Below, piece after piece: positions 15,641 through 62,978 of a stretch of 64,000 nt of DNA; positions within the stretch are counted from its first letter, which is position 1; each line of letters begins with the position of its first letter. Origin of the DNA: Oscillospiraceae bacterium (GTDB taxonomy: Bacteria; Bacillota; Clostridia; UMGS1840; HGM11507); NCBI GenBank assembly GCA_015068665.1, contig SVKB01000011.1, forward strand, positions 4,858 through 68,857, in the 5' to 3' direction. The notes under the pieces were generated by a model. That model was not told the DNA's origin. It was given only the letters and a program-made list of their open reading frames with translations, and did no database searches. The position numbers and the translations under genes are program-made.

Positions 15641-15647
15641 ATAAAAA

Positions 15648-15673
15648 GGGGCTGTAAATTTATTTACAGCCCC
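15648..15673 (-). terminator. Terminator hairpin GGGGCTGTAAAT-TT-ATTTACAGCCCC at the 3-prime end of S1
   Basis: 12-bp stem followed on the minus strand by TTTTTAT. The same hairpin occurs at 20147, 25006 and 53475. Confidence 0.7.
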
Positions 15674-15925: not shown

Positions 15926-15928
15926 ATA

Positions 15929-19869: not shown

Positions 19870-20146
19870 AAAAATGGGGATGTAAAAAAACTCCAGACCA
19901 CCAAAAACAAGATTTATCAACGATTTTGATAGAGAAACTTATCAAATTAGCCGTCGAAGAGCTATCCGACGGCTAACTATTAAAAAGGTAAAGATTTTAG
20001 AAAAATCTTTAAAATTTAAGTTTTTGGTTATGAATAAACTTAGCCGCTCGACGTATCTAATACGCCTTCGGGTGACCCAAAATCAAAGATTTTGGCTAAG
20101 TTTATCCATTCTGAAGATTTTTTCCTATCCCCTCTGAATTGTTTTA
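19870..20146 (+). repeat. S element copy 2 (body), inverted relative to copies 1 and 3
   Basis: Reverse complement of the S1/S3 body. Carries an additional 22-nt TA-flanked palindrome at 19951-19972. Confidence 0.85.
19951..19972. mobile_element. Minimal TA-flanked palindromic insertion (fused MITE ends)
   Basis: TA-GCCGTCGAAGAGCTATCCGACGGC-TA. It is absent from the equivalent position of S1 and S3 (which have a single TTA there). Its sequence equals the outer part of the 52536-52809 MITE terminal repeats. Confidence 0.5.
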
Positions 20147-20182
20147 GGGGCTGTAAATAAATTTACAGCCCCATTTTTTATA
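20147..20182 (+). terminator. Terminator hairpin of S2 (GGGGCTGTAAAT-AA-ATTTACAGCCCC + ATTTTTTAT)
   Basis: The hairpin plus T-tract reads on the plus strand, convergent with the 1560-aa gene whose stop is at 20186. Confidence 0.6.
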
Positions 20183-20185
20183 TTT

Positions 20186-24930: not shown

Positions 24931-25005
24931 TTGGATTATTATTCGGTGGATTGGACTATCGTGTAAATTACAAATTACCAACGTCCTTCATTTCTCAATA
25001 AAAAA

Positions 25006-25031
25006 GGGGCTGTAAATTTATTTACAGCCCC
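25006..25031 (-). terminator. Terminator hairpin at the 3-prime end of S3 (terminates rny transcript)
   Basis: GGGGCTGTAAATTTATTTACAGCCCC followed on the minus strand by TTTTTTATT. Confidence 0.7.
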
Positions 25032-25282
25032 TAAAACAATTCAGAGGGGATAGGAAAAAATCTTCAGAATGGATAAACTTAGCCAAAATCTTTGATTTTG
25101 GGTCACCCGAAGGCGTATTAGATACGTCGAGTGGCTAAGTTTATTCATAACCAAAAACTTAAATTTTAAAGATTTTTCTAAAATCTTTACCTTTTTAATG
25201 GTTAATTTGATAAGTTTCTCTATCAAAATCGTTGACACATCTTGTTTTTGGTGGTCTGGAGTTTTTTACATTCCCGTTTTTA
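25032..25282 (-). repeat. S element copy 3 (body), 3-prime UTR of rny
   Basis: Begins 1 nt after the rny stop codon. Its shadow ORF 25041..25238 differs from the S1 shadow ORF 15683..15868 at only 2 of 60 codons. Confidence 0.85.
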
Positions 25283-25283
25283 T

Positions 25284-26840
25284 TTATTTTGCATAATCTA
25301 CAGCCCTTGTTTCTCTTACGACATTAACCTTAATCTGTCCCGGATATTCAAGCTCGCTTTCGATTTTTTCTGCGATTTCTCTTGCAACCACAATCATTGT
25401 TTCATCATTGATATCATCAGGCTTAACCATAATTCTGATTTCTCTGCCTGCCTGGATTGCAAAGGATTTTTCAACGCCCTTGAAGGAGGATGAAATTTCC
25501 TCAAGCTTCTCTAAACGTTTAACATAGGTTTCAATATTTTCTCTTCTTGCGCCCGGTCTTGCAGCGGAGATTGCATCAGCTGCCTGAACGATGCATGCAA
25601 TAACTGTTTCAGGCTCTGCATCACCGTGATGGGACATAATAGAGTTTAAAACGACCTGATCCTCATGATATTTCTTGGCAATATCCGCACCAATCATAAC
25701 GTGAGAGCCTTCTATTTCGTGAGTTGAAGCCTTGCCTATATCGTGAAGTAAGCCTGCTCTTTTAGCCATAACAACGTCAACGCCTAATTCTGCGGCAATA
25801 ATTCCCGATATATGAGCAACTTCAATTGAATGCTTAAGAACATTCTGACCGTAGCTTGTTCTGTACTTAAGTCTTCCGAGAAGCTTGATAAGCTCGGGGT
25901 GAAGACCATGAACGCCAACCTCGAAGGTAGCGGATTCACCGGCTTTTTTAATGGTAGCATCAACCTCTTTCTGAGCCTTTTCAACCATTTCTTCAATTCT
26001 TGCAGGATGAATACGGCCGTCCGAGATAAGCTTTTCAAGTGCAAGACGGGCAACCTCACGTCTGACAGGATCGAAGGAGGAAAGGATAACTGCTTCGGGA
26101 GTATCGTCAATGATAACATCAACCCCTGTTGCGGTTTCTAAGGTTCTTATGTTTCTTCCTTCTCTTCCGATAATTCTTCCTTTCATTTCATCGCCGGGAA
26201 GGGATACTGTGGAAACTGTAACCTCAGCAACGTGATCGGATGCACATCTCTGAATAGCAGATGTGATAATGTTTCTTGCCTTTTCGTCAGCAACCTCTTT
26301 TGTTTCTTCTTCAATTTCCTTGATTTTAACAGCAGCGGCAACTCTGACTTTTTCTTCGATATTTTTCAGTAGGTATGTTTTTGCTTCTTCAGCGGTCAGT
26401 CCCGAAATCTTTTCAAGAAGCTCCAACTGTCTTCTCTGGATTTCAGCAACATATTCTTCTTTTTCTTCTAACTGCTTCTGCTTGTCTTTTAAATTTTCTT
26501 CTCTTGACTCAAGGTTTTCAAGCTTTTTATCAAGATTTTCTTCCTTTTGCAGAAGTCTTTTTTCCTGTTTTTGGATTTCTCCGCGACGTTCCTTGATTTC
26601 CTTATCAAGCTCTGATCTGCTCTTATGTATTTCGTCTTTAACCTCTAAAAGCTTCTCTTTTTTCATGTTTTCAACGGTTTTATAAGAGTCGTTAACAATT
26701 CTTTTTGCTTCTTCTTCAGCGCTTTTAATCTGGCTTTCCGCAATCTTTTTACGGTAGGAAATACCGAGTCTGAAAGCTATTAAGCCAACAACCAAAGCAA
26801 CACCGGCGGCGATTCCAATCATTATAAACGGATTATTCAT
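25284..26840 (-). CDS. rny: Ribonuclease Y
   Basis: N-terminal TM helix, long coiled coil, KH domain ([12 protein letters not shown]) and HD domain (HSIEVA...LLHDIGK). Start moved to ATG 26840 (MNNPF) behind GGGAGGTG; the track start at 26909 is an extension. Confidence 0.95.
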
Positions 26841-33144: not shown

Positions 33145-33967
33145 AAGTAAAAAGCGTAAAAAAAGCGTTAAAATTCCCCGGACCATGCAAAGCAATATAT
33201 ATATAAAGAAAGCGATGTACTTATTCCGTAATTAAATGTTAAAGGCGCTTGATAAAATAAGGAATAAATCGCAAAGCGATTTATGGAATTAAAAGCTTTG
33301 CATTTTGAACGAAAATCCCCTCTCGATGTATTTAATACACCTTCGGGTGATTTTCGTTCAATCCAAGAAATTTTTCCTGCTTTTCGTTTGATATTGGCGG
33401 CATCGAGCCACCAATATCAAAAAAAGCGTAAAATCAACAAACCATGTAAAGCAAAATAATATAAATAGAAAATGTGTCTGTATCATATACAGGCACATTT
33501 ATTTGTAGTTTACATTACTATATTAAGGTATAAATTTGCAAGCAAATTTATGAATTTAAATGCTTTGCGTTATAAATGAAACCAGCCATCTGAGAGTTAT
33601 CAAAATTCGTTTTTTAAAAAATTCCAACGGAACCTATATCGCTTTAAAATTGTGATTTTTCAAGGCGGAAGGCTTTGGTAATACGAGGTATGCCAAAGGC
33701 GACAACGAAGAAAAAGCCTATTTTTAAGTGATATAGACGGATTTGGATAGCTCTTAGATGGCTGCAGATGTATCTCATACACCTTCGGGTGATTTTCGTT
33801 CAATCCAAGAAATTTTTCTTATCTTTCGTTTGATATTGGCGGCATCGAGCCACCAATATCAAAAAAGCGTAAATTCAACAAACCATGCAAAGCAAAATAA
33901 TATAAATAGAAAATGGGCGTGTCTCAATAAGTGATTTTTCACTCAATCGAGGCAACGCCCTTTGCTT
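33145..33967 (+). repeat. T-unit composite (three T-type units, R junction modules, one embedded MITE)
   Basis: Units start with AAAAAGCGT(T)AAAAT at about 33149, 33421 and 33863. They contain the 14-bp hairpin AAATGTGTCTGTAT-CAT-ATACAGGCACATTT (33470-33500), AAATTTGCAAGCAAATTT, an R junction (33309-33357) and the GCATCGAGCC-loop hairpin (33379-33427, 33826-33870). Confidence 0.8.
33583..33764. mobile_element. MITE-like element with 27-nt terminal inverted repeats (23/27 match)
   Basis: Left end CAGCCATCTGAGAGTTATCAAAATTCG. Reverse complement of the right end CAGCCATCTAAGAGCTATCCAAATCCG. It interrupts an R module (compare the intact copy at 62195-62241). Its interior is homologous in inverse orientation to 52565-52680. 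Confidence 0.55.
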
Positions 33968-37211: not shown

Positions 37212-38593
37212 CAAATAAGGAAGAACTTTTATTAATGAAAAGGGAGCAGGGCTACGATTCGGTAACCCAGTCACAGAAAAAGAAGATTTTCGATTTTTCC
37301 GAGGGCTATAAGGAATTTATAGGAAGGGCAAAAACCGAAAGAGTTTTTGTTAAAGACACAATTGAACTTCTAAAAAAGGAAGGCTTTAAGAAATTTTCTC
37401 CCGATATGAAATTAAAGCAGGGAGACAAGGTATATTTTGAAAACAGAAAAAGAGCTCTGATTGCAGTAAAAATGGGTAAAAAAAGCTTAAGTGAAGGGGT
37501 AAGTATGATAGGTGCGCATATTGACTCACCAAGACTTGACTTAAAGCCGATTCCCCTGTATGAGGCTGAAAATACCCTTTATATCAAAACCCACTATTAC
37601 GGCGGAATTAAAAAATATCAGTGGCCTGTAATTCCGCTTTCAATGTTCGGTACGGTTGCTCTTAAAAACGGTAAAACCGTTGATATTGTTATAGGCGAAG
37701 ACGAAAAGGATCCGATTTTCGTTATTACCGATATTCTTCCACATCTCGGAAATACCCAGTACAAGAAAACTCCTGCCGAGATTATCCATCCCGAACAGCT
37801 TAATGCTATCGGCGCTACCATTCCTTATGAGGATAAGGAGGCTTCGGGCAGAGTAAAATTAAACTTTCTAAATATTATCAATAAGAAATATAATATTACC
37901 GAGGAGGATTTTATTTCCGCGGAAATAACTCTTGTTCCTGCTCTTAAGCCAAGGGATGCGGCTATTGATTCAAGCCTTGTTGCCGCTTACGGTCAGGATG
38001 ACAGGGTTTGTGCATACACAGGTCTTATGGCACTTCTTGACTCTAAGGAAGAAGCAAAAACCCAGCTTCTTTTGCTTTCGGATAAGGAAGAGGTAGGCTC
38101 AATGGGAAATACCGGTATGCAGTCAAAATTCTTCGAATTCACATTAGAAGCACTTTGCGAAAATCAGGGAGTAAAATTAAGAGAGGCCCTGTGGAATACC
38201 GAATGTTTATCAGCCGATGTTTGTGCCGCTTATGACCCTAATTTCCCCGAAGTTTATGAAAAGAACAACTCGGTGTTCTTAAACGGAGGCGTTTCTCTTA
38301 TGAAATATTCGGGTGCAAGGGGTAAATCGGGCACCTCGGATGCAAGCGCAGAGCTTTTGGGAAAAATAAGAGGTCTTTTTGATAAGGCTTCGGTTAAATG
38401 GCAGATTGGCGAGCTTGGAAAAACCGATGAAGGCGGCGGCGGAACAATTGCACAGTTCGTGGCAAACCTGGGATGTGAGGTAATCGACTGCGGAGTTGCC
38501 CTTCTTTCAATGCACTCACCCTATGAGGTTGCTTCAAAGTATGATATTTATATGACATATAAGGCATATAAAACCTTTTTTGAAAAAGCATAG
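37208..38593 (+). CDS. M18 family aminopeptidase
   Basis: About 461 aa. GAHIDSPRLDLKP, DDRVCAY, DKEEVGS and LSMHSP motifs of aspartyl/M18 aminopeptidases. The alternative ATG at 37199 is also possible. Confidence 0.85.
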   Translation: MTNKEELLLMKREQGYDSVTQSQKKKIFDFSEGYKEFIGRAKTERVFVKDTIELLKKEGFKKFSPDMKLKQGDKVYFENRKRALIAVKMGKKSLSEGVSMIGAHIDSPRLDLKPIPLYEAENTLYIKTHYYGGIKKYQWPVIPLSMFGTVALKNGKTVDIVIGEDEKDPIFVITDILPHLGNTQYKKTPAEIIHPEQLNAIGATIPYEDKEASGRVKLNFLNIINKKYNITEEDFISAEITLVPALKPRDAAIDSSLVAAYGQDDRVCAYTGLMALLDSKEEAKTQLLLLSDKEEVGSMGNTGMQSKFFEFTLEALCENQGVKLREALWNTECLSADVCAAYDPNFPEVYEKNNSVFLNGGVSLMKYSGARGKSGTSDASAELLGKIRGLFDKASVKWQIGELGKTDEGGGGTIAQFVANLGCEVIDCGVALLSMHSPYEVASKYDIYMTYKAYKTFFEKA

Positions 38594-38935
38594 CCTTCTT
38601 AATGAGGAGAAGGTGTCAGCGATAGCTGACGGATGAGATATAAGATATAAATCCTTCGGATTTTCGATATGTTTTGCTAAAGCAAAACTCGATATGTGCT
38701 TCGCACTCGATATGTTGTCTTGCGACAACGAGACAGGTAGGGGCGTTTATTACCGCCCGAAAGCCCTCCTTGCCTAAAGGAGGGGGGACCGCTTTAGCGG
38801 TGGGAGGATTTTTGAAAAGGTGTAATATAAATCCCTATGGGATTTTCGATATGTTTTGCTAAAGCAAAACTCGATATGTGCTTCGCACTCGATATGTTCC
38901 TTTGGAACTCGATATGTTCCTTCGGAACGAGATAA
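38593..38935 (-). repeat. V module, two CATATCGAG bead arrays (inverse orientation) and a GC-rich W5 module forming the whole aminopeptidase-era spacer
   Basis: V at 38593-38637 overlaps the TAG stop. Array 1 is at 38631-38733 and array 2 at 38821-38935; both lack the CAATTTTAATTG unit. W5 at 38740-38828 equals the inverse of 42621-42700. Confidence 0.85.
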
Positions 38936-38948
38936 AAGGAGAGCTAAA

Positions 38949-39830
38949 ATGAAAAGCGGATTTATAAGCGTAGTAGGAAGAACAAATGCAGGGAAGTCAA
39001 CACTGGTCAATTCTCTTATCGGAGAAAAAATTGCAATTATCTCCAATAAGCCCCAGACCACCCGCTACAGAATTATGGGAATAAGAAATGAAGAGGAGTG
39101 TCAGATAATTTTTACCGACACTCCGGGAATACATAAGCCCAAAACCAGACTTGGCGACTTTATGATAAATGAAGCCAACGAGGCTCTTAACGATACCGAT
39201 GCGGCTCTTCTTGTAATCGAGCCGGTTGACAATGTGGGAATAAGTGAGAAAAAGCTTATTGAAATCCTTAAAAAGTCAGGTATTCCCGCAATACTTGTTA
39301 TCAATAAAATTGATACAATTAAAAAGGAAAGCCTGTTTCCCATAATTGAAAAATACTCCTCCGAGTTTGATTTCGATGCAATCATTCCCGTAAGCGCAAA
39401 AACAGGAGACGGAGTTTCGGTTTTACTTGAAGAAATAAAAAAATACTTAACTGAAGGTCCTATGTTCTTCCCCGAAGATATGGTAACCGATTCACCCATA
39501 AAGCAAAGATTATCCGAAATTGTAAGAGAAAAGCTTTTATGGTCTCTTGATAAGGAAATACCTCACGGGATTGCAATAGAGGTTACTAAAATGGATGAGG
39601 ACAAAAATAAAGTAGCCCTTGATATTACCATTTACTGTGAAAAGCAGTCCCATAAGGGAATTATTATCGGTAAGGGCGGAGAGCTTTTAAAAACAGTTGG
39701 TACAAGAGCCCGTTACGATATGGAAAAGCTTCTCGGAAAAAAAGTCGGTCTTACTCTTTGGGTTAAGGTCAAGGAGGGCTGGCGTGACAGCGTGATGCTT
39801 CTTAAAAACTTCGGGTTTAATGAGGAATAA
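38949..39830 (+). CDS. era: GTPase Era
   Basis: MKSGFISVVGRTNAGKSTLVNSL..DTPG..NKID..KH domain. ATG 38949 lies behind AAAGGAGAG. The 31 extra codons in the track (start 38856) are translated repeat sequence. Confidence 0.95.
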   Translation: MKSGFISVVGRTNAGKSTLVNSLIGEKIAIISNKPQTTRYRIMGIRNEEECQIIFTDTPGIHKPKTRLGDFMINEANEALNDTDAALLVIEPVDNVGISEKKLIEILKKSGIPAILVINKIDTIKKESLFPIIEKYSSEFDFDAIIPVSAKTGDGVSVLLEEIKKYLTEGPMFFPEDMVTDSPIKQRLSEIVREKLLWSLDKEIPHGIAIEVTKMDEDKNKVALDITIYCEKQSHKGIIIGKGGELLKTVGTRARYDMEKLLGKKVGLTLWVKVKEGWRDSVMLLKNFGFNEE

Positions 39831-40281
39831 TTTGAAAATCAGGAATTAGGAATGAAGTAAGGCAAGCATGACATATAAATGCAGAATTCAGAGTGCAGAA
39901 TGCAGAATGATATGCCGCAAGCGGCATAGTGAATTGCACCTTTCGGTGCATGAATTGTTATCAGCTTGATAACATGAATTGATTTTTACAAATCATGAAT
40001 TGTTGACTTATGTCAACATTAAGGATAGGACGGATATGCCCGAAAGTGGTTAATGAATTTAGTTGCAGTATCATATTTCTTTTTATTTAATGGACTACAC
40101 TTCATTACACCTCATCCGAGTTGCTATGCAACCCACCTTCTCCTCAAGGAGAAGGCTTTGGCATCCGTCCTTTTCTCGTTGCCGAAAGGCAACATATCGA
40201 GTGCGAAGCACATATCGAGCAATTTTAATTGCATATCGAGTTTTGCTTTAGCAAAACATATCGAAAATCCCAAAGGGATTT
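39831..40281 (+). repeat. C composite repeat starting at the era stop codon, with P hairpin split by an insertion
   Basis: AGGAAT and TGCAGAAT words, then TGAATTG 4 times. P left arm at 40027-40040 and P right arm at 40160-40171. Complete 5-hairpin CATATCGAG array at 40171-40281. Confidence 0.85.
40041..40159. repeat. 119-nt insertion in the loop of the P hairpin, carrying a V module (40108-40156)
   Basis: Intact P elsewhere reads GGACGGATATGCC-ATTC-GGCATCCGTCC. Here the arms are separated by sequence ending in CACCTCATCCG-AGTTGCTATGCAAC-CCACCTTCTCCTCAAGGAGAAGGC. Confidence 0.7.
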
Positions 40282-40318
40282 AAAAAAAGCGCCAAACGCT
40301 TTCGTTTGGTGCTTTTTA
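40282..40318. terminator. Bidirectional intrinsic terminator (era / 40337 gene)
   Basis: AAAAAAA-GCGCCAAACG-CTTT-CGTTTGGTGC-TTTTT between convergent genes. Confidence 0.7.
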
Positions 40319-40336
40319 TTGTCTCTTTAGCCAATA

Positions 40337-41065
40337 CTAATTGTATAAATATTTTAAATAATCAAAATATATTTCACTATGATAGTTTTCCAGTTCTTCT
40401 TTGATATCAAAAAGCAAGTAGATATCGTTTATGAATTCTGTTTCAGTGCATATAAATCCGGAAGATTCTACAAGATTTTTCACCAGAGAATAAATATAAG
40501 CAGTTTTATTATACACTTCGTCGAGTTTTTGATAAAATCCGTCAAGGTTTTCCTTTGATGTGAGGTCTGATAGAATAATATACATCATTTCTTTATATTT
40601 AATCAGGGAATTATAGTATTCCGATATATATTTGACATCATCTGCCAATCCCTGATAATAGGTTATATCACTATTATGAAAATAACCAGTCCAATGCGAC
40701 TTGTTGAATCTGAAATCCGAGTAAGAGTATATGTTGTCACATAAATCTGTAATTCGTCCTGCTTCATACAAACACTCAAAAACAAAAGCTATTTCCGTTT
40801 TTTCATTATATCGCATAATGGTCGCCGTATTTGTTTCTCCGTTCCATCCGACTTCACAGCCAAGAATTTCAGCTGCTTTTCTTAAAGGTACATAAGTGGT
40901 GCCGTTATAAAGAATGTTATCAGCATTTACCGGGTTTCCATTTACATTTAGGTTAACCATGTTAAAATGTACCGGAATTGTCTGCTGGCTGTTATCGGCA
41001 AGTGTTGAAACAGTGTTGAAAATAAAAATAAATACTGTTGCCAATAGTATTAATCTTTTTTTCAT
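40337..41065 (-). CDS. Secreted protein with copper-amine-oxidase-N-like (stalk) domain
   Basis: Start moved to MKKRLILLATVFIFIF (41065) behind GAGGTGG. GTTYVPLRKAAEILGCEVGWNGETNTATI motif. C-terminal helical region of unknown function. Confidence 0.65.
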   Translation of the reverse strand: MKKRLILLATVFIFIFNTVSTLADNSQQTIPVHFNMVNLNVNGNPVNADNILYNGTTYVPLRKAAEILGCEVGWNGETNTATIMRYNEKTEIAFVFECLYEAGRITDLCDNIYSYSDFRFNKSHWTGYFHNSDITYYQGLADDVKYISEYYNSLIKYKEMMYIILSDLTSKENLDGFYQKLDEVYNKTAYIYSLVKNLVESSGFICTETEFINDIYLLFDIKEELENYHSEIYFDYLKYLYN

Positions 41066-41181: not shown

Positions 41182-41424
41182 ATGGATGTTAAAGATATGG
41201 TTGTAAAAAGATTTAAGGAATTATGTGCAGAAAGAAATATGAGAATAAATGAGCTTGCGAATATATCAGGCGTTACTCCGTCAACTGCGTACAGTATGAT
41301 GGATGCCTCACGGAGAGATATATCAATAAAAACCATTAAGAAATTTTGTGATGGTCTGGAAATAACCTTGGGTGAATTTTTCTCGACAAAGGATTTTGAC
41401 AGTCTTGAGCAGGAAATACAGTAA
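41182..41424 (+). CDS. XRE-family helix-turn-helix transcriptional regulator
   Basis: 80 aa. RFKELCAERNMRINELANISGVTPSTAYSMM is a Cro/C1-type HTH. Good SD (GAGAGG). Confidence 0.8.
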   Translation: MDVKDMVVKRFKELCAERNMRINELANISGVTPSTAYSMMDASRRDISIKTIKKFCDGLEITLGEFFSTKDFDSLEQEIQ

Positions 41425-42363: not shown

Positions 42364-42625
42364 GATAATATGCCACAAGTGGCATAATGAATTGCACCTT
42401 GCGGTGCGTGAATTGTTATCAATCTGATAACATGAATTGATTTTTTAAAAATCATGAATTGTTGACTTATGTCAACATTAAGGATAGGACGGATATGCCA
42501 TTCGGCATCCGTCCTTTTCTCGTTGCCGTAAGGCAACATATCGAGTTCCAAAGGAACATATCGAGTGCGAAGCACATATCGAGTTTGCAAGGCAAACATA
42601 TCGAAAATCCCATAGGGATTTATAT
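42364..42625 (+). repeat. C composite repeat, 5-prime truncated (TGAATTG array, intact P hairpin 42486-42515, CATATCGAG array 42515-42625)
   Basis: Same module order as 11476-11750. The array has TTGCCGTAAGGCAA and TTCCAAAGGAA units and lacks the CAATTTTAATTG unit. Confidence 0.85.
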
Positions 42626-42740
42626 TACACCTTTTCAAAAATCCTCCCACCGCTAAAGCGGTCCCCCCCTCCTTTAGGCAAGGAGGGCTTTGCAATGTGC
42701 CTGCCCTTCGGCAAGCACATTATTTTTCTATATATCCCCT
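42626..42740. repeat. GC-rich W5 module and variant long hairpin AATGTGCCTGCC-CTTC-GGCAAGCACATT
   Basis: 42621-42700 is the inverse of 38740-38828. The hairpin at 42686-42718 shares outer stem bases with the AAATGTG..CACATTT hairpin of the T units but has a different inner stem. Confidence 0.65.
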
Positions 42741-42965
42741 GCTTTGCGATTTATTCCTTATTTTATCAAGCGCCTTTAACATTAGTGTTATTCCGTACCT
42801 TGTACGGAGTGATATTTTTGATAAATCAAAAGTGTTATTGAAACCTGACGGTTTCAGTGGTATTTTATCCGCCTTTATTAAGCTGTGCGAAGCACAATAC
42901 CACTGCGCAGCAATATCACTTGCTAACAGCAAATATCACTCGCCGTAAGGCGAATAAAACTGCAA
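42741..42965 (-). repeat. GTGATAT dyad bead array (Q), inverse copy of 62340-62575
   Basis: Shadow ORFs 42720..42932 and 62379..62582 translate identically for about 63 aa, and 42697..42948 versus 62363..62617 for about 68 aa. The DNA is therefore essentially identical. Confidence 0.85.
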
Positions 42966-43262
42966 AGCTCCGCTTTGCAAAGTCCGGGGAATTTTACATC
43001 TTTTTTATGGCGGTGGCTCGATGCCTCCGCCATAAAACGAAAGATAGGAAAAATTTCTTGGATTGGACGAAAATCACCCGAAGGTGTATTAAATACATCG
43101 AGAGGGGATTTTCGTTCAAAATGCAAAGCTTTTAATTCCATAAATCGCTTTGCGATTTATTCCTTATTTTATCAAGTGCCTTTAACATTTAATTACGGTA
43201 TAAGTACATCGCTTTCTTTATATATATTGCTTTGCATGGTCCGGGGAATTTTTACATCTTTC
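42966..43262 (-). repeat. T-type unit, inverse near-copy of 33170-33430, ending 5 nt from the stop of the 904-aa gene
   Basis: Contains an R junction (43067-43115) and a GCATCGAGCC-loop hairpin with an altered but still complementary stem (43003-43037). Confidence 0.8.
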
Positions 43263-43267
43263 TAATT

Positions 43268-45982
43268 TTATTTGGTTATTATTTTTACTGTATTTGTGCT
43301 TCCGTCCCAGCCTACATAACATCCGATTGCTTCCGATAGAAATCTTAAGGGAACAAGTGTACGGTTATTATATATTCCCGGTGCCGCGTCAATTGCCTTT
43401 GCTTCACCGTTTATATAAGCCTCCTTGCTTCCGATTATCATTTCAATAGAGGCGTTATCCTTTTTCGCGGTTGCCTTTTTAGCTTCGGCATCCCACATAA
43501 CCTCCATCCCAAGTGCTTCGCAGATTGCACGGAATGGAACAAGCAGTCTGCCCTCTGAATTTACGGGATCCGAGTCAAATGAAAGCTTTACTCTGTCCAC
43601 ATAAATTTTATAAAGGTCATTATCTGTTATCACCTGTGAGCCGGAATTATTATAAAGAAGAAGCTCAAATATACCGATTGCCTTCTTTCCCTCCGCTTCA
43701 CTCTGAAGTCTTACATATCTTACCTCTTTTAAGGGGAAGGTAACTTTTTCATTTCCCCCCTTTGATTCCGCTTCAAGAAGCTTTACATAGTTTTCGTTAT
43801 CGGTAGAAACGCTGATTGAGTATTTTTCGGGAAAGTTATTGTAATCCCACAAAATTTCAGCTTCATCAATTTCGGTGCTCTGCCCTAAATCAATGGTAAT
43901 ATAAGGCTTTTCCTCCACATTACTTAACCACTTGGTTGCTGTGGAATTATCGTTTACATTTATATCCTTATCTGCAACCGAGGATGCAGAAACAAGCTTT
44001 TCCTTTGCTAAATTGGCAGGATTATAATAAAGCTCTGCTTCTCTTACTGAAACACCCTGCGGAAGCTCAAATTTAAAATATCTTGCCTTTATTTTATTAA
44101 AGGTCAATACGTCTCCCTGTGAGGTGCCCAGAGGGATATAGCCTGCACCGTCATCTGAATAGTAGAAATTATAATTTGAATCCGCCTTTAATATTGCGGT
44201 ATTTACATAAAAAGCCTCACCTAAATCAACTATTACCTCATTTGCACTCTGAGAGGTTTCAAGGCGATTGTCGGTAAATACGCCGCCGTTTTTATTTTTA
44301 AGGGCAAGGTTACTCTTAAGCTTTGCCTGATTTGCACCTCTTATGGAGTTACCCGATTCAAATATATACCAGGGCCAGCTTCTGCCGGTGTCCATATATC
44401 TTTCCTTCATGGTTGCAAGATGCTCGTTGGCTCTTAATATATCACCCATTTTACCTGATATTATGGAGGTAGCCATCCATGGGAAATCGGTTTCCTTTGG
44501 TCTTACAACTCTTTTAGGCTGCTCGGAATTAAATCTTTTGTAAAGATGGATTGCTCTTTCCGATTCGGGGGAAAGTGCATCGTATAAAATAGGGAATACC
44601 TCACTTGCCGCATCGCCGTAGAAAACGGTCCAGTCGCAAAGACGGGTTTTATTGGGAGTGATATAGTAGATATATTCGCCCTTATCCTCCATCCACATTC
44701 CTTCAATACCCTTATAGCTTTTCTCGGCAAGGGCACCGTAGTGAGCGGCCTTGGGCTCATCCTCAAATACTTCCTTTTCAAGTCTTGTAATGGCTCTTAA
44801 GCCCATAAGCACCTGAATATTATCCTGAAGGTATTTGGTGTAGTGCCCCTCCTGATTTTTTGCATCGGTAAGGCCGTCATCCCTCATAGTAAAGATAGCC
44901 GAATCCAGAATAAGCTCTAAATCCGCCTTAAGACTCTTGAAATACTCCTTGTCCCCGGTAACCTCATAAAGCTTCTCAACTAAGATTAAGAAGGTAGTAC
45001 CGCGGGAGTCAGATGCGGAGTAATCATCTGTTGAACGGTAATCGTTATAATCGTCTGCATTTACCTGACGGGTATATATAGTACCCTTTATTCCGTATTT
45101 ATCAGGCTCTCTGTTTATATGCCTTATATACCAGTCTATCCACTTTTTAACAGCGGTAACAGCCTCTTCGTTCGGAATATCCAAAAGACCTAAACAGCCT
45201 AAATTTACAAAATAAGGCTCGATTGTGTGATATCTTTTATCGGTGGCTGCATCCTTGGTAGAGTTATTTTTATTTCTTACAAAGGCACCGTCAATGGGCA
45301 TTCCGGGCATATTAATCTGCTGCTCTAAAAACCACTTATGCTCTCCTTCCATTATTCCCGAATAATCCAGAGGCTTTATTTCGGTTCTTATATCCTGGGG
45401 AAGCACTACATGGGTTGAGCCTGCAATAACTCTTCCTGCTTCATCCGGCTTGGTATCGAAAATTTCAATTTCCTCAACATATCCGATATTTTTATTGGCA
45501 TTTCCCGACGGGTCCTCAGCCTTAAGCACCGAAACCTTTACAAAACGGGCGGTTACCTTTTCAAATTCTATGGTACCCTTAAAATGCTTATCGTCTATGG
45601 CATCCGGGCAGGTAAACTTATCGGCTTCCATAACCGCAAGAGTTTCCCACTCCTCGGTATTCTGGGACACCTCTACCTTATAGCCCTTAAGACGCCTTAC
45701 CTTGGTGGTATTTATTTCATAGATATCAATTTTGTTAAAGGACTTCATCTGACCGAAGTCAAAGCGAACATAGGCTTCCTTTCTTACCTGCCAGCCCTCA
45801 CCGTGCTTGGAAACATCCTTTATTCCGTCGTTTACACGAAGATGGTCATTTGAGGAACGGGTGGTAAGGGGAACTATTTCTGCTCCGATTGCGATATTTT
45901 CAGGCTCCTCTGCCAGACTAAGGCAGGGAATAAGTGAAAGTATAAGTGAAGCGATAATTAATAATGTTAATAATCTTTTCAT
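43268..45982 (-). CDS. Secreted multidomain glycan-binding / glycoside-hydrolase-like protein (discoidin-type modules, central helical catalytic-like region, C-terminal copper-amine-oxidase-N-like domain)
   Basis: 904 aa with a signal peptide. N-terminal and two later F5/8-type-C-like modules (FNKIDIYE.., ARYFKFEL.., VRYVRLQS..). LVPFRAICEALGMEVMWDAEAKKATA at the C-terminus. First gene of the sugar ABC operon. Confidence 0.6.
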   Translation of the reverse strand: MKRLLTLLIIASLILSLIPCLSLAEEPENIAIGAEIVPLTTRSSNDHLRVNDGIKDVSKHGEGWQVRKEAYVRFDFGQMKSFNKIDIYEINTTKVRRLKGYKVEVSQNTEEWETLAVMEADKFTCPDAIDDKHFKGTIEFEKVTARFVKVSVLKAEDPSGNANKNIGYVEEIEIFDTKPDEAGRVIAGSTHVVLPQDIRTEIKPLDYSGIMEGEHKWFLEQQINMPGMPIDGAFVRNKNNSTKDAATDKRYHTIEPYFVNLGCLGLLDIPNEEAVTAVKKWIDWYIRHINREPDKYGIKGTIYTRQVNADDYNDYRSTDDYSASDSRGTTFLILVEKLYEVTGDKEYFKSLKADLELILDSAIFTMRDDGLTDAKNQEGHYTKYLQDNIQVLMGLRAITRLEKEVFEDEPKAAHYGALAEKSYKGIEGMWMEDKGEYIYYITPNKTRLCDWTVFYGDAASEVFPILYDALSPESERAIHLYKRFNSEQPKRVVRPKETDFPWMATSIISGKMGDILRANEHLATMKERYMDTGRSWPWYIFESGNSIRGANQAKLKSNLALKNKNGGVFTDNRLETSQSANEVIVDLGEAFYVNTAILKADSNYNFYYSDDGAGYIPLGTSQGDVLTFNKIKARYFKFELPQGVSVREAELYYNPANLAKEKLVSASSVADKDINVNDNSTATKWLSNVEEKPYITIDLGQSTEIDEAEILWDYNNFPEKYSISVSTDNENYVKLLEAESKGGNEKVTFPLKEVRYVRLQSEAEGKKAIGIFELLLYNNSGSQVITDNDLYKIYVDRVKLSFDSDPVNSEGRLLVPFRAICEALGMEVMWDAEAKKATAKKDNASIEMIIGSKEAYINGEAKAIDAAPGIYNNRTLVPLRFLSEAIGCYVGWDGSTNTVKIITK

Positions 45983-49659: not shown

Positions 49660-51930
49660 ATGAAAAGAAAATTACCCTTTTTAAAAAAATTGAATATTAA
49701 TTTTAATAAAAAAGGTGTGTTCAGATATTTTCTTATTACTTATATGTTAGTATTTATGGTGCCGGCTCTGATAAGCTTTGTTATGCTTGCCGGTGCCCTT
49801 GATACAGCTAAAAACGAAGCTGCTGAGAAAAACCTTATTATTTCTCAGCAGTTTAAATATTCAGCGGAACAAATTTTAATAAGGCTGGAAAATATCAGAG
49901 CAAGAGTTATTTCGGATAAGGAGCTTACGGGCTTAAATTATGAAACCGAAAACATTACCACCCCCGAGCGCTACCGCCTTACAGGGGATATAAAAAGACT
50001 AAATGACTGTATTCTTACGGAAAACGATTTTATCGGAAGCATCTATCTTTACAGAAACGATAAAAATATTGCAATGGGAACGGCAGGTCTTTTTTCACTT
50101 GAAAGGCTCTACCGTACAGGCTTTTCGGGCTCAGACCTTCCCTACGGACGGCTTTATGACAGGCTAAGCCTTTCAGAAAGCTTCTATATTCCGTATCGGG
50201 AGCTTAATATAAACGGAATTTATGAGGACAGTATTTTATGCATTCTCCCGATTGAAAAGGGAGTATATCTTACCGACTGGACACATATTATTATGACCTT
50301 ACCGAAATCCCGTTTTGCAGGTAAGATAAAAACCGAAAAGGAAAATGCGGATATCCTTATTCTTGATAAGGAAAATAAAATTATTCCCCTTTACGGAAAG
50401 TGTGAGGGCTTAAGCCTTGACTACAGCTATTTTAAAAAGGATAAAACGGTTTACACCGATAAGAAAAGGGGAGCGGTTATAACCTGTTTAAGCTCAGAGC
50501 TTACCGACTGGAAGTATATAATGATAGAGCCTGATTCATCTTATTTAGGAAGGGTTCACCGTCTGTGGGGCTTTATTCTTTTTGGCTTTATCCTTGCCCT
50601 TCTTGCAGGAATGTTTATCATTTTTATATTTTCCAAACGGAACTATGAAAAGATAAGAAGCATTGCCGACCTTTTCGGGAAAAATGATACTGAAGCAAAC
50701 GAGCTTCAGTATATAAACGAGAATATATTAAAATCCATGGGCGAACGAGCCGAGCTTATAAAACTTAAGGAAAAAACCGGTGCCGATAAGGAAGAAGAAA
50801 AAATAAGAGAGCTTTTAAGAGGAGTTAAGTTTGAGAATTTAACCGACAAGGCATATCTTGACGAGCTTTCGGATCTGTTTGAGGGGGATAAGGTAAGAGT
50901 TATTGCCCTTTATCCCGAGAATACCCACGAGCTTTATTTCGGTGCTGATATTTCAGCCTCAGAAAAAGAGGAGGAAACCGCCTTTATTATAAGGAATACT
51001 GCCTCGGAGGAGCTTAGGGGAAAATCGGTCGTAATTGATGGAATTATTGCCCTTATTCTTGATAAAGCGTATAGCGATGAAGCTCTTTACGGTAAAATAA
51101 GAGATCTTATTGATATTTATAAAAAGCATTTTAACCTTACTGTAAGTGCAGGCATCGGAGGTGCCCAGTGGGGGGCAGGAAGTCTTAAAAGGGCTTATGT
51201 AACCGCCCGTAAGGCATTGGAATATAAATTTATTTCGGGTAAAGGAAGCATAAACCTTTGGGACGAGGTTTCCAAAAAAAATTCAGGGTTCAGCTATCCG
51301 CCCGAAACCGAGCAAAAGCTTATTAACTGTGTAAAATCGGGAAGCTTTAAGGATGCGAGCGCTATTACCGAGGAAATATTCAAAACTAATTTTATAGAAA
51401 GTCAGCCTTCGGTGGAAATGGCAAAATGCCTTATCTTCAACCTGGAGGGTACAGTTTTAAAAACGGTTCCCAAGGACACGGACGGAGAATATAAGCTTGA
51501 TACCGCCTTCATAAGCGAGCTTCTTACCCCGGAAAATATATGGGAAATAAAAAACTATTTGATAAAAATACTTGAAAAAATATGCGAATATAATCAAAGT
51601 CAGCTTTCTGATAATGCAGGAGCTGTTTCGGAGAAAATAAGCAGGTTCATAGCTGAAAGGTGCTGTGATCCTCAGCTTAATATAAGCCTTATTGCAGAGC
51701 ATTTTTCCCTTTCGGGAGCTTATATCTCAAAGCTTTTTAAGGAAAGCCGCGGAACAAGCATCCTGGACTTTATTCACACCGAAAGATTAAAAAAAGCAAA
51801 GGAGCTTTTAAAATCGGGAAAATCCGTTTCCGAGGTTGCTCTGGCTACGGGATACAGTAACTCCAATGTGTTTATCAGAGTATTTAAAAAATACGAAAGG
51901 GTAACACCGGGTCAGTTTATCAAAATGTAG
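49660..51930 (+). CDS. Membrane-anchored AraC-family transcriptional regulator with extracytoplasmic sensor region
   Basis: 756 aa with two TM segments (about aa 22-44 and 300-322). C-terminal AraC HTH (LNISLIAEHFSLSGAYISKLFKE...ATGYSNSNVFIRVFKKYERVTPGQF). Confidence 0.8.
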   Translation: MKRKLPFLKKLNINFNKKGVFRYFLITYMLVFMVPALISFVMLAGALDTAKNEAAEKNLIISQQFKYSAEQILIRLENIRARVISDKELTGLNYETENITTPERYRLTGDIKRLNDCILTENDFIGSIYLYRNDKNIAMGTAGLFSLERLYRTGFSGSDLPYGRLYDRLSLSESFYIPYRELNINGIYEDSILCILPIEKGVYLTDWTHIIMTLPKSRFAGKIKTEKENADILILDKENKIIPLYGKCEGLSLDYSYFKKDKTVYTDKKRGAVITCLSSELTDWKYIMIEPDSSYLGRVHRLWGFILFGFILALLAGMFIIFIFSKRNYEKIRSIADLFGKNDTEANELQYINENILKSMGERAELIKLKEKTGADKEEEKIRELLRGVKFENLTDKAYLDELSDLFEGDKVRVIALYPENTHELYFGADISASEKEEETAFIIRNTASEELRGKSVVIDGIIALILDKAYSDEALYGKIRDLIDIYKKHFNLTVSAGIGGAQWGAGSLKRAYVTARKALEYKFISGKGSINLWDEVSKKNSGFSYPPETEQKLINCVKSGSFKDASAITEEIFKTNFIESQPSVEMAKCLIFNLEGTVLKTVPKDTDGEYKLDTAFISELLTPENIWEIKNYLIKILEKICEYNQSQLSDNAGAVSEKISRFIAERCCDPQLNISLIAEHFSLSGAYISKLFKESRGTSILDFIHTERLKKAKELLKSGKSVSEVALATGYSNSNVFIRVFKKYERVTPGQFIKM

Positions 51931-52325
51931 AAAAGCATTAAAATTCCCCGGACCACGCAAAGCAAAATAATATAAAGAGTAAAATGTGTCTGTATCATAT
52001 ACAGGCACATTTATTTATAGTTTACATTACTATATTAAGGTATAAATTTGCAAGCAAATTTATGAATTAAAAGCTTTGCGTTTTGAACGAAATCAGCCAC
52101 TCGACGTACTTAGTACGCCTTCGGGTTCCACCCCTTCGGGGCTGAATTCGTCCAATCCAAGAAATTTTTTCTGCTTTTCGTTTGATATTGGCGGCATCGA
52201 GCCACCAATATCAAAAAAAGCGTTAAATCGACAAACCATACAGAGCAAAATAGTATAAATAGTAAATGTGTCTGTATCATATACAGGCACATTTTGTTTT
52301 AGTATACATTACTATATTAAGGTAT
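51931..52325 (+). repeat. Two T-type units starting at the stop codon of the AraC-type gene
   Basis: AAAAGCATTAAAATTCCCCGGACCACGCAAAGC. 14-bp hairpins at 51982-52012 and 52264-52294. R junction with an extra CCCCTTCGGGG hairpin at 52087-52151. GCATCGAGCC-loop hairpin at about 52174-52220. Confidence 0.8.
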
Positions 52326-52899
52326 AAATCCTTCGGATTGTCGATATGTTTTGCTAAAGGCAAAACTCGATATGCAATTAAAATTGCTCGATATGTGCTT
52401 CGCACTCGATATGTTGCCTTTCGGCAACAAGAAAAAAGGACGGATGCCGAATGGCATATCCGTCCTATCCTTAATGTTGACATAAGTCAACAATTCATGA
52501 TTTTTTTAAAATCAATTCATGTTATCGAATTGATAGCCGTCGGAGAGCTATCCGAACTCGCCTCAAACCCTTAAAAATAGGCTTTTTCTTTGTTGTCGGT
52601 TTCGATATACCTTGTATTATCAAAACCTTCCGCCTTGAAAAATCACAATTTTAAAGGGTTATAGGTTCTATAAGAATTTTTAAATTAGGAAATTTTTAGA
52701 TAGAATGAGGCAAAAACGCAGGTAATATTTCGGATATTACCGAGGATTTTAACGATATTATATCAAAAATTTACAATTTAAAAACGAGTTCGGATAACTT
52801 TCCGACGGCTACCAATTCACGCACCGCAAGGTGCAATTCACTATGCCGCTTGCGGCATATCATTCTGCATTCTGCACTCTGAATTCTGCATTTATAATT
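52326..52899 (-). repeat. C composite repeat (inverse), co-oriented with and abutting the stop of the HAD gene, interrupted by a MITE
   Basis: On the plus strand: a complete 5-unit CTCGATATG array at 52326-52437, P at 52437-52467, then the CAATTCA array interrupted at 52536-52809, then ATTCTGCA words up to 52899. Confidence 0.85.
52536..52809. mobile_element. MITE-like element, ~25-nt terminal inverted repeats, flanked by TA
   Basis: TA-GCCGTCGGAGAGCTATCCGAACTCG ... CGAGTTCGGATAACTTTCCGACGGC-TA (2 mismatches). It is inserted in the loop/arm of the GTTATC..GATAAC hairpin, which is intact at 62838-62856 and 11519-11536. No ORF inside. Confidence 0.6.
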
Positions 52900-61174: not shown

Positions 61175-62037
61175 ACTTTAAAAGAGCAAAAACAATACTT
61201 ATAGTTATCTTCCTGTTCGTCAATATATTTTTAATTGTAATTAACAATCTTTTCTATGAATCGGATATAACAGTTGATACAAAAACAGTTATCAGCATTC
61301 TGTCAAAATCGGGAATCTCGCTTAATGAGGATATTTTAAAGGAATATCCGGTCTCGGTTCCAAGAGTTGAAGTTGAAAATGTTGCTGCCGATGAAAATAA
61401 GCTTGCTACCCTGCTTTTAGGTAAAGGCTATAACAGCTCCAAGGAGCATTACTACTCGGGCGAGGGTGCAGCCCTTACCGTCAGTGAGCTTTCGGTTGAC
61501 TACAAGGTGGTTGAGCCCAAGGATAAATCCTTTAAGGATATAAGCCCCTTAAATGCAGGCAATAAGGCACTGAAAAAGCTTAATAAAAAGGGAATTGGTG
61601 AATCGGCACTTGAGGTTGAGAATATTTCCGATAACGGAAACAATAACTACTATGTAACTCTTTCTTATAAGTTTGAGGAATATCCCCTTTTCAATAATCA
61701 TCTCTATGTAACTGTTACCGACAGGGGAATTCTTGCAATGAAGGGTACTGTTATTGATTTTAATGAAATAAAAAACGAGGATTATAAAATAATCCCCGCC
61801 GCAAACATACTTCTCGAGCTTCCTTCCAACCCCGATTTAAAGAATGTGGATAAAAATCCTGAAGTAACGGGCATCCGACTGGGATATTTCCTGCCTATGG
61901 GTAAAGGGGAAGCATCAATCTATGCAATTCCCGCCTATGAGATTGAGATAAGCAATAAAAAAATTTATTACTATGATGCCAGGGAAAATATAAGCTCGGA
62001 TGTAATATTGTTGGGAAGCATAAACGCCATCAAGTAA
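61171..62037 (+). CDS. YycI-like regulatory accessory protein
   Basis: 288 aa. GTGA overlap with the preceding gene. The N-terminus NFKRAKTILIVIFLFVNIFL resembles YycI. Confidence 0.55.
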   Translation: MNFKRAKTILIVIFLFVNIFLIVINNLFYESDITVDTKTVISILSKSGISLNEDILKEYPVSVPRVEVENVAADENKLATLLLGKGYNSSKEHYYSGEGAALTVSELSVDYKVVEPKDKSFKDISPLNAGNKALKKLNKKGIGESALEVENISDNGNNNYYVTLSYKFEEYPLFNNHLYVTVTDRGILAMKGTVIDFNEIKNEDYKIIPAANILLELPSNPDLKNVDKNPEVTGIRLGYFLPMGKGEASIYAIPAYEIEISNKKIYYYDARENISSDVILLGSINAIK

Positions 62038-62317
62038 AAAAGCGTAAAAATTACCCAGACCACGCAAAGCAAAATAATATAAATAGTAAATGTGTCTGTA
62101 TAATATACAGGCACATTTATTTATAGTTTACATTAATAAATTAAGGTATAAATTTGCAAGCAAATTTATGTTTTTAAATGCTTTGCGTTATAAATGAAAA
62201 ACACCTCTCGATGTATCTCATACACCTTCGGGTGTTTTTCATTTATTCCAGGAAATTTTTCCTGCTTTTCGTTTGATATTGGCGGCATCGAGCCACCAAT
62301 ATCAAAAAAAGCGTTAA
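62038..62317 (+). repeat. T-type unit starting at the yycI-like stop codon
   Basis: AAAAAGCGTAAAAATT... 14-bp hairpin at 62088-62118, AAATTTGCAAGCAAATTT, R junction at 62195-62241 (outer stem TGAAAAAC/GTTTTTCA), GCATCGAGCC-loop hairpin at about 62264-62312. Confidence 0.8.
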
Positions 62318-62575
62318 AATTCCCCGGACTTTGCAAAGCGGAGCTTTGCAGTTTTATTCGCCTTACGGCGAGTGATATTTGCTGTTAGCAAGTGATATTG
62401 CTGCGCAGTGGTATTGTGCTTCGCACAGCTTAATAAAGGCGGATAAAATACCACTGAAACCGTCAGGTTTCAATAACACTTTTGATTTATCAAAAATATC
62501 ACTCCGTACAAGGTACGGAATAACACTAATGTTAAAGGCGCTTGATAAAATAAGGAATAAATCGCAAAGCAAAAT
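62318..62575 (+). repeat. GTGATAT dyad bead array (Q)
   Basis: GTGATAT at 62372 and 62392, GTGGTAT at 62408. Then ATAACAC at 62473, ATATCAC at 62496 and ATAACAC at 62520. All intervening hairpins differ from one another. Confidence 0.85.
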
Positions 62576-62643
62576 AATATAAAGAGTAAAATGTGTCTGT
62601 ATCATATACAGGCACATTTATTTATAGTCTATATTAATATATT
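62576..62643 (+). repeat. Partial T unit with 14-bp hairpin (62589-62619)
   Basis: AAAATAATATAAAGAGTAAAATGTGTCTGTATCATATACAGGCACATTTATTTATAG, as in 51965-52020. Confidence 0.75.
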
Positions 62644-62978
62644 AAGATATAAATCATTCGGATTTTCGATATGTTTTGCTAAAGCAAAACTCGATATGCA
62701 ATTAAAATTGCTCGATATGTGCTTCGCACTCGATATGTTCCTTCGGAACGAGAAAAGGACGGATGCCGAATGGCATATCCGTCCTATCCTTAATGTTGAC
62801 ATAAGTCAACAATTCATGATTTGTAAAAATCAATTCATGTTATCAAGCTGATAACAATTCATGCACCGCAAGGTGCAATTCACTATGCCACTTGCGACAT
62901 ATCATTTTGCATTCTGCACTCTGAATTCTGCATTTATATGGCTTGCCGGCCTTCATTCCTCATTCCTGATTTTAAAAT
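62644..62978 (-). repeat. C composite repeat (inverse), uninterrupted reference copy
   Basis: On the plus strand: 5-unit CTCGATATG array, P at 62755-62785, CAATTCA 4 times, ATTCTGCA words, CATTCCT words. Confidence 0.85.

Follow-up and report, generated by a model that had tools for sequence, protein, structure and literature searches.

Results

The stretch of DNA analyzed here, called the window, comprises 64,000 nucleotides of contig SVKB01000011.1 from the Oscillospiraceae bacterium assembly GCA_015068665.1 (positions 4,858 to 68,857, forward strand). Its genes are those of an ordinary spore-former core chromosome (MreB, BipA, RNase Y, RNase J, Era, YqfD, PhoH, and YbeY), and the spaces between them hold arrays in which a constant 9-mer linker, CATATCGAG, alternates with small, varying hairpins. 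Exact matches to the linker in the window number 29, where dinucleotide-preserving shuffles predict 0.19 (shuffle maximum, 2); all 29 are confined to ten clusters, five per strand, and ten of ten arrays are intergenic. A first-pass annotation of this DNA, made from the letters alone, had placed copies at 11618, 11751, 40171, 41441, and 42515 on the plus strand and at 27185, 38631, 38821, 52326, and 62644 on the minus strand. All ten were recovered, the letters of the reference copy (40171-40281) agree exactly with its quotation, and the variants listed for the first hairpin (TTCC-GAA/GCA-GGAA, TTGCC-GAAA/GTAA-GGCAA, and TTGTC-GCAA-GACAA) and for the last (AATCC-GAA-GGATT and AATCCC-AAA/ATA/GTA-GGGATT) are present. 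The arrays are real, and so is the constraint on their hairpins.

We call one such array an arm and its hairpins beads. The polarity of an arm is fixed and runs from an (A/T)TTCTCG lead through 4-5 modules, each a constant ATATCGA spacer plus a Watson-Crick mini-hairpin of 3-7 bp, to a terminal CATATCGA(A/C/T). In the window the lead is (T)TTTCTCG, four or five short palindromes are spaced by CATATCGAG, and the last linker is CATATCGAA. The reference copy reads, in order, lead TTTTCTCG, TTGCC-GAAA-GGCAA, CATATCGAG, TGC-GAA-GCA, CATATCGAG, CAATT-TT-AATTG, CATATCGAG, TTTTGC-TTTA-GCAAAA, CATATCGAA, AATCCC-AAA-GGGATT. Window copies differ from each other by whole beads. The ten arms, which belong to linker class L1 (see below), are listed here with their bit scores under the covariance model R1, also described below.

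11610-11731, plus strand: L1 arm, right half of a composite repeat of ~316 bp; 76.4 bits
11737-11859, plus strand: L1 arm in tandem, directly after the 11610-11731 arm; 77.6 bits
27183-27322, minus strand: L1 arm between a Bmp-family gene and the RNase Y gene, the only window copy sense to both flanking genes; 84.4 bits
38631-38739, minus strand: short L1 arm of four beads, with two of its linkers complete; 65.4 bits
38821-38940, minus strand: L1 arm abutting the Shine-Dalgarno sequence and start codon of era; 83.6 bits
40163-40281, plus strand: L1 arm, the reference copy, with a bidirectional terminator (40284-40317) directly 3' of it; 84 bits
41436-41552, plus strand: L1 arm just past the stop codon of a small helix-turn-helix (HTH) gene (41182-41424), with a bidirectional terminator 3' of it; 86.7 bits
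42506-42625, plus strand: L1 arm, right half of a composite; 89.1 bits
52318-52446, minus strand: L1 arm with CATATCGAC as its last linker; 83.9 bits
62643-62770, minus strand: L1 arm, half of a composite 94% identical to 11416-11731; 77.9 bits

The final G of each linker pairs across the bead with the first C of the next linker, closing the foot of the hairpin, and these foot bases themselves covary (G..C to A..T). Because the two ends of the 9-mer are engaged in this way, its unpaired constant part is ATATCGA. The linker had been described as invariant, which holds for this core (97-100% conserved in the model-aligned copies, when the majority base of the hairpin columns reaches only 30-66%) but not for every full word: the 38631 copy has two complete linkers plus CATATCGAA, and the 52326 copy ends with CATATCGAC. 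Similarly, the last hairpin of the 62644 copy is broken (AATCCGAATGATT). Both strands of an array fold as beads on a string (z of -6.4 to -7.2 with DNA parameters and -4.6 to -5.7 with RNA parameters). The TCGA within each L1 linker is self-complementary, and folding programs pair the TCGA of neighboring linkers across a bead; these bases never vary and are evidence neither for nor against TCGA:TCGA pairing. The beads have no T-runs and do not form the GC-rich hairpin plus U-tract of an intrinsic terminator; canonical terminators, separate from the beads, come after two arrays. A possible outward-facing promoter (TATAAAT at the array end) was dismissed after a scan for promoter consensus sequences came up empty at the arrays.

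The arrays are modules of wider mosaic repeats of about 120-320 bp, and dispersed repeats make up about 10% of the window. Since the window copies are close paralogues (76-98% identical), they carry little weight alone on the conservation of structure, and the evidence comes instead from other genomes. A one-genome-per-species scan for three linkers with gaps of 7-18 nt matched at least 108 loci, of which seven, from Pontibacillus, a planctomycete, Prevotella, an actinomycete, and others, were set aside as ordinary tandem repeats in which the 9-mer occurs by coincidence and which form no bead arrays. True bead arrays occur in about 66 species-level Clostridia metagenome-assembled genomes (MAGs) among the matches listed, several with 4-7 loci each. 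These MAGs are labeled Acutalibacteraceae, Christensenellaceae, Oscillospiraceae, Ruminococcaceae, and Feifaniaceae, none of them is cultured, and their isolate names point mostly to ruminant and deer guts (goat, yak, roe deer, water deer, and buffalo). The repeat is intergenic, occurs in high copy number, and belongs to uncultured Clostridia of herbivore and bird guts. The 208 open reading frames (ORFs) that neighbor them fall into 172 clusters; the neighbors are therefore unrelated, and the family is dispersed rather than bound to one locus.

Among the matches listed, the true-array loci provide 191 distinct beads, of which 76% form perfect hairpins of at least 3 bp from their own ends (2.4% when shuffled), and 170 (89%) do so once the G and C at their flanks are counted as well. 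In a MAFFT alignment of 57 distinct four-hairpin arms, the source of model R1, RNAalifold gives compensatory changes at 11 of 21 pairs, and our own 16-pair structure has a covariation score of 0.644 versus 0.176 shuffled. The model finds exactly the ten window copies, at 65-89 bits, and 180 copies in 793 kb of array-bearing loci, with no match in 258 kb of control loci. In 148 distinct copies aligned to it, 96.6% of cells pair (62.3% shuffled), two-sided changes occupy 801 cells (216 shuffled), compensatory changes occur at 16 of 16 pairs, and the covariation score is 0.827 (0.199 shuffled, with 0 of 500 shuffles reaching 0.827 and slid controls at or below 0.117), values that come from an alignment fitted to the model, most of whose information lies in the linkers.

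This is strong cross-MAG evidence that stems change in sequence yet keep their pairing, and that the linker stays constant. The covariance-model check proposed in the first-pass annotation therefore came out positive, with 10 of 10 window copies recovered and covariation far above that of shuffles, and its argument that structure rather than sequence is constrained is borne out across the ~66 species-level MAGs among the matches listed. The covariation is qualified in one respect: with stems that are strictly Watson-Crick, it is no proof that an RNA is under selection.

A reading of every intergenic region in the window brought out four linker classes, in clusters that shuffles do not yield: L1 (CATATCGAG, 10 arms), L2 (CATGAATTG, 4 full and 2 partial arms), L3 (GTGAAAT, the linker of Gut-1; 2 arms, mutually inverted), and L4 (GTGATAT, 3 arms). 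The elements other than L1 arms are the following.

5448-5523, plus strand: L3 arm with GTGAAAT/ATGAAAT linkers, the Rfam Gut-1 match; 70.2 bits versus a gathering score of 50
5545-5630, minus strand: inverted partner arm of the Gut-1 match, with ATTTCAC/ATTTCAT linkers on the plus strand and beads such as AATTTAC-GAA-GTAAATT
11470-11585, plus strand: L2 arm with (C/G)(A/G)TGAATTG linkers, left half of a composite
12164-12243, plus strand: L4 arm with GTGATAT linkers
39905-40025, plus strand: L2 arm downstream of era
42365-42480, plus strand: L2 arm with a weak Gut-1 model match (42385-42464; 24.6 bits, E = 0.12)
42487-42514, plus strand: central hairpin GGACGGATATGCC-ATTC-GGCATCCGTCC, which joins an L2 to an L1 arm
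42896-42939 (minus strand) and 62372-62415 (plus strand): L4 arms with GTGATAT / ATATCAC linkers
52470-52535 and 52838-52880: partial L2 arms
62790-62905, minus strand: L2 arm of a reverse-oriented composite

Window L2 arms are always joined to an L1 arm via the GGACGGATATGCC-ATTC-GGCATCCGTCC hairpin, which recurs at 11590-11617, 52438-52465, and 62757-62784 and is split by an insertion of ~119 nt at 40028-40170. The L2 beads at 11470-11585 are CACC-TTAC-GGTG, TTATC..GATAA, ATTTTTACAAAT, and TTGAC-TTAT-GTCAA. The ~119-nt insertion (40041-40159) stands in place of the ATTC loop of this central GGACGG hairpin and carries a module, CACCTCATCCGA-hairpin-CCACCTTCTCCTCAAGGAGAAGG, that recurs next to other arrays; the copy in strain contig L113 has a different small hairpin in the module (GTTGC-TAT-GCAAC versus GTTTTGC-AAA-GCAAAAC).

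The L3 arm at 5448-5523 is Rfam Gut-1 RNA (RF01706), hairpins joined by GUGAAAU, and it directly follows a five-tRNA cluster (4977-5413) and its terminator. Its inverted partner at 5545-5630 falls below the Rfam gathering score and makes with it a double arm (region 5448-5640). Gut-1 was described by Weinberg et al. in 2010 as a human-gut-only candidate small RNA (sRNA) of three hairpins and rated likely RNA, with no mention of repeat-family behavior; its seed alignment holds both GUGAAAU and GUGAUAU linkers, plus inverted double arms (PMC2864571). We found no later literature on Gut-1 in the library searched. Searches for the 9-mer returned only primers and unrelated matches, and those for GCGAAGC intergenic hairpins or for repetitive extragenic palindromic (REP) elements in Clostridia returned nothing relevant.

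L1 arrays and Gut-1 have the same architecture, a string of at least three short variable-stem hairpins with a constant linker (a 7-mer in Gut-1). Read on equivalent strands, the linkers CTCGATATG, CATGAATTG, GTGAAAT, and GTGATAT align on a YGAWWT core, and on the opposite strand classes L1-L4 have the same loops, C-GAA-G, GNA, and GNNA. Both kinds of array can form two inverted arms, and both occur in the same genomes: Gut-1 matches of 50.7 and 52.4 bits lie in the L1-bearing MAGs of loci L045 and L089, and at L045 a Gut-1-type array runs straight into an L1 array. They differ in that the L1 linker, CUCGAUAUG on the Gut-1 strand, is not the GUGAAAU/GUGAUAU of Gut-1 and has only the GAUAU/GAWWU core in common with it. 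No L1 array reaches the 50-bit gathering score of the Rfam Gut-1 model (best, 19.7 bits, E = 2.1, at 38869-38940), and no Rfam family extends over these arrays, whether at gathering or at permissive thresholds. Judged by these sequence features, the L1 arrays are best filed as a previously undescribed linker class, or branch, of a superfamily that includes Gut-1. They are not a stand-alone novelty; as for their being fragments of a known element, Rfam has no family over them, yet they are kin of Gut-1.

Most copies in the MAGs consist of two arms at most 120 nt apart in inverted orientation (reverse-forward, 37; forward-reverse, 20; forward-forward, 2). Such paired copies end in 9-bp GTCGATATG...CATATCGAC; window copies are single arms or two different arms. 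For the one copy tested, L046:5915-6135, the predicted fold reaches -48.6 kcal/mol as DNA (z = -6.3) and -67.1 as RNA (z = -4.25) and takes the form of a ladder of 8-9-bp linker:linker helices split by four-way junctions, each of which projects two bead hairpins. Arms in the window occur singly, in tandem, or within the ~316-bp composite of L2 arm, central hairpin, and L1 arm; the two arms of the composite cannot pair together, and arm-to-arm pairing is therefore not obligatory.

Where solo arms lie between co-directional genes, the CATATCGAG strand is antisense in 28 cases and sense in 9, and window arms switch strand with local gene direction. Given this bias and the switching, messages would usually carry CUCGAUAUG with UUC or UNNC loops. 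A leader-peptide reading of the AUG in CUCGAUAUG was rejected because the lengths of the units are not divisible by three.

In about 13 of 123 arms, a Shine-Dalgarno sequence and start codon follow 8-25 nt past the end of the arm. One of these arms is at era (38949-39830), where the reverse complement of the 38821-38940 arm ends ...TTCCTTCGGAA CGAGATAAAAGGAGAGCTAAA ATG and therefore adjoins both elements. The longest era ORF (38856-39830) takes a TTG within the array as its first codon, but the true start is ATG 38949 (MKSGFISVVGRTNAGKST...), as exact matches to the protein in public assemblies bear out. Among 80 era loci of relatives (Era 48-70% identical), not one carries an array, so the era-proximal copy is lineage-specific, and a conserved ancestral era leader is ruled out.

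At one locus the element is clearly long-lived. In five species (L040:3040-3330 and orthologous sites in L005, L062, L064, and L093), a double arm fills the gap from the gene of a rumA-like methyltransferase to the Shine-Dalgarno sequence of the next gene. The methyltransferase ORF crosses the terminal linker of the array, and its TGA stop is a bead loop (GTCA on the other strand); its last residues are thus repeat-encoded in five species. Identity is 92% for the forward arm, a value inflated by the three linkers that the search pattern demanded there, 82% for the coding sequence adjoining on one side, and 81% for the other arm, with most differences in loops. A long hairpin that seemed to covary beside this array is conserved C-terminal coding sequence of the methyltransferase and not part of the element.

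Discussion

The evidence on whether the hairpins are maintained as DNA or as RNA is split, and we favor a constraint at the DNA level. The stems are strictly Watson-Crick: 919 of 944 stem pairs are canonical, with 9 G:T, 6 A:C, and 10 other, and one-sided changes account for 25 of 2287 cells in the model alignment versus 801 two-sided. An excess of G-U pairs, usual in selected RNA helices, is absent on either strand, where G-T stands at about 1%. On the CATATCGAG strand the loops are 33 GNA versus 1 TNC and 30 GNNA versus 0 TNNC; 17 of the 30 GNNA loops are GNYA, which is outside the RNA GNRA class, and the closing pair is C-G in 127 of 170 hairpins. C-GNA-G and C-GNNA-G are the most stable mini-hairpin loops known in DNA, and TGCGAAGCA contains GCGAAGC, the classic d(GCGAAGC). 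Strict Watson-Crick stems fit the maintenance of palindromes in DNA at least as well as they fit RNA. There is also a mutational route, the intrastrand templated correction of quasi-palindromes, that could give double changes without functional selection.

The reading that we prefer, with a probability of roughly 0.55, is that the arrays are a modular repeat family like REP elements, bacterial interspersed mosaic elements (BIMEs), or BOX elements, the hairpins of which are kept at the nucleic-acid level, probably as DNA. Their behavior is extragenic, modular, high-copy, and recombining, hence this filing: arms gain, lose, and swap whole beads at identical linkers, and arms of different linker types concatenate. 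In such a family, the pairing constraint would act on a single nucleic-acid strand, most likely DNA; the constant linker would be read by a trans-acting factor and/or serve arm-to-arm pairing; and copies would spread and homogenize by recombination or some single-strand mechanism. Orientations that place the hyper-stable strand in mRNA or on the non-template strand would be selected against, and arrays that are transcribed would act merely as stem-loop-rich segments of untranslated regions (UTRs) or between cistrons.

The likeness to known repeats is substantial but not complete. Like the REP/BIME elements of enterobacteria and pseudomonads (including REPINs), the arrays are high-copy palindromic units found strictly outside genes, in mosaics with conserved linker motifs; inverted doublets fold into larger hairpins, the elements are recombination substrates, and a conserved short word lies at the 5' foot of the hairpin, as GTAG does in REP. 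In contrast to REP, however, where a palindrome of about 35 nt is itself conserved behind a GTAG-like tetranucleotide, here the flanking 7-mer is constant and the hairpins, of 8-17 nt, vary. Units within an arm are direct, rather than alternating as in BIMEs, and no RAYT was found in the window or by an approximate-query tblastn of the fetched loci. BOX of Streptococcus pneumoniae is likewise a modular intergenic repeat of Firmicutes with variable internal modules (boxA-boxB(n)-boxC), predicted stable stem-loops, and copies in UTRs, but it has no sequence similarity to the arrays, and its modules are conserved units of 45-59 nt, not mini-hairpins with a 9-mer.

Several observations weigh against this assignment to DNA repeats. 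First, no mobilizing enzyme was found: the window has no transposase, RAYT, cas, or toxin genes, and a tblastn search with an approximate IS200 TnpA sequence had no match in the about 1.3 Mb of fetched loci to which it was confined. Second, no empty-site polymorphism or target-site duplication was found, and there is no duplication at aligned array boundaries. Third, where strain contigs differ they join at arrays, and because such contigs may be chimeras we have not used them as evidence of mobility. Fourth, the strand opposite the stable loops is favored by three points, the 28:9 bias, the strand switching, and the conserved U-G foot pair of the Rfam Gut-1 model, which is workable only on the strand opposite the GNA loops; the stable DNA loops fall mostly on the template strand, the one that is least often single-stranded. 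Fifth, conservation of the forward arm at the five-species locus looks like purifying selection for a host function and not like decaying selfish DNA. Finally, its discoverers judged Gut-1 likely to be RNA (PMC2864571).

The main rival, a serious one although we think it less probable, is that the arrays are functional cis-acting RNA modules of the Gut-1 type, co-transcribed mostly in the CUCGAUAUG orientation and lying between cistrons or in UTRs. Such modules could protect the messages on both sides, the upstream one at its 3' end and the downstream one at its 5' end; they could, by pure inference, expose single-stranded G|AWWU sites between hairpins to an endonuclease, for instance RNase Y; or zipped arms could bring the upstream stop codon beside the downstream ribosome-binding site. 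Strong covariation and the published rating of Gut-1 (PMC2864571) are in keeping with this idea, as are the co-orientation of solo arms with genes in the CUCGAUAUG sense (28:9) and of window arms with gene direction, the roughly 13 of 123 arms close upstream of a Shine-Dalgarno sequence and start, era included, the rumA-like locus with its stop in a bead loop and its other arm at a Shine-Dalgarno sequence in five species, the G followed by A/U-rich bases that is common to all four linker types, and RNA folding z values of -4.3 to -5.7. The stems and loops themselves speak against it. G-U pairs are as rare as A-C on either strand, the loops in the mRNA sense are UUC or UNNC, which are not stable RNA types, and the GNRA-like loops are antisense and more than half GNYA. 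Context also tells against it, in that the seed alignment and the window alike have their Gut-1 copies after terminators, the opposite orientation is taken by one in four solo arms and by one member of each pair, and the relatives of era manage without an array.

A broader proposal, which we put forward tentatively, leaves the choice of nucleic acid aside: Gut-1 and these arrays may form an unrecognized "linker-hairpin ladder" superfamily that is kept by selection in many uncultured Clostridia and read on a single strand by a dedicated factor for the YGAWWT/AWWTCR word displayed between mini-hairpins. If so, the factor might be an enzyme of single-stranded DNA by which units are copied or moved, or else an endoribonuclease or RNA-binding protein to which the units serve as modules for operon processing, and chains of four-way junctions would be a new nucleic-acid architecture with a cellular role.

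It seems improbable that the 9-mers are primarily protein-binding sites in duplex DNA, with the palindromes secondary, whether as a miniature inverted-repeat transposable element (MITE) made of the abutted ends of a transposon whose transposase binds several subterminal repeats per end, or as sites for a nucleoid or partition protein. The linker core, 97-100% conserved across genera, would suit a binding site, and the 9-bp terminal inverted repeats of the paired copies, GTCGATATG...CATATCGAC, with inverted halves that each hold 3-4 further direct copies, resemble in layout the multi-site ends of Tn7, Mu, and IS607. But this account leaves the hairpin spacers, the compensatory changes, and the strand-asymmetric loops unexplained; sites are spaced by 16 to 26 bp, so there is no helical phasing; and composites in the window pair two different linkers. 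A MITE would be marked by a target-site duplication and a parent insertion sequence with transposase, and no such duplication, transposase-bearing parent, or transposase adjoining an array was seen at the loci examined. The sole array-bounded contig, L045, is not an autonomous transposon, since its cargo is ilvB, ilvN, and ilvC.

A CRISPR-like or defense array, a type III antitoxin repeat, a coding tandem repeat, and chance or an assembly artifact are effectively refuted: identical short words alternate regularly with variable segments, and Rfam gives a weak CRISPR-DR17 match (24.9 bits, E = 0.17) on the last hairpin and A-run, but the constant word is 9 nt rather than a 23-50-nt repeat, the supposed spacers are palindromes that recur between copies rather than unique, there are no cas or toxin genes in the window and no leader, a genome has many copies and these are small, the units, 17-25 nt long, are not divisible by three, 29 words are observed where chance would give 0.19, and independent assemblies from JGI and ENA contain the same arrays. 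The "reverse of CRISPR logic" noted in the first-pass annotation is therefore a visual analogy only.

Origins in phages and plasmids were also discarded: one true array occurs among 2.9 million viral contigs, and there was no BLAST match in phage or plasmid collections. The single viral-contig array (L133:4700-4900, IMG/VR) abuts a ribosome-binding site and start codon and is followed by a further linker class, ACTTCAC, with beads such as TTGCC-GTA-GGCAA.

Since 2010 Gut-1 has been an orphan "sRNA" entry of Rfam, with human-gut reads as its only known source. It is now one branch of a much larger modular repeat family that spans dozens of uncultured animal-gut species and takes up about one-tenth of the Clostridia chromosome stretch sampled here, which recasts it from a single gene to a genome-wide element. 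The constant 7-mer as bait, the strand asymmetry of the loops, the 3:1 orientation bias, and the predicted four-way-junction ladder are handles for experiment.

The repeats also break short-read assemblies and may create chimeric joins in MAGs. Strain contigs with an Era or TetR protein identical to that of the window (L113, L117, L119, and L121, compared with 11398-12385 and 38593-40337) have other genes beyond the arrays, namely MscL, creatininase + Mem_trans, or Cu_amine_oxidN1 + HTH. The junctions fall inside arrays, and many contigs end inside arrays; the differences reflect either recombination between copies or chimeric assembly.

Other repeats in the window

Two further repeat families were seen. 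An unrelated repeat of ~300 bp, 88-97% identical between copies (15633-15935, 19870-20185 in inverted orientation, and 24998-25290), flanks two very large surface-protein genes, of 1291 aa (CBM_4_9, Cu_amine_oxidN1) and 1560 aa (SASA esterase, F5/8 type C). Mosaic repeats of 150-530 bp, 70-96% identical (33159-33926, 42740-43269, 51927-52329, and 62034-62654), fill intergenic regions of 0.8-1 kb and contain terminator-like hairpins such as TGTGTCTGTATCATATACAGGCACA.

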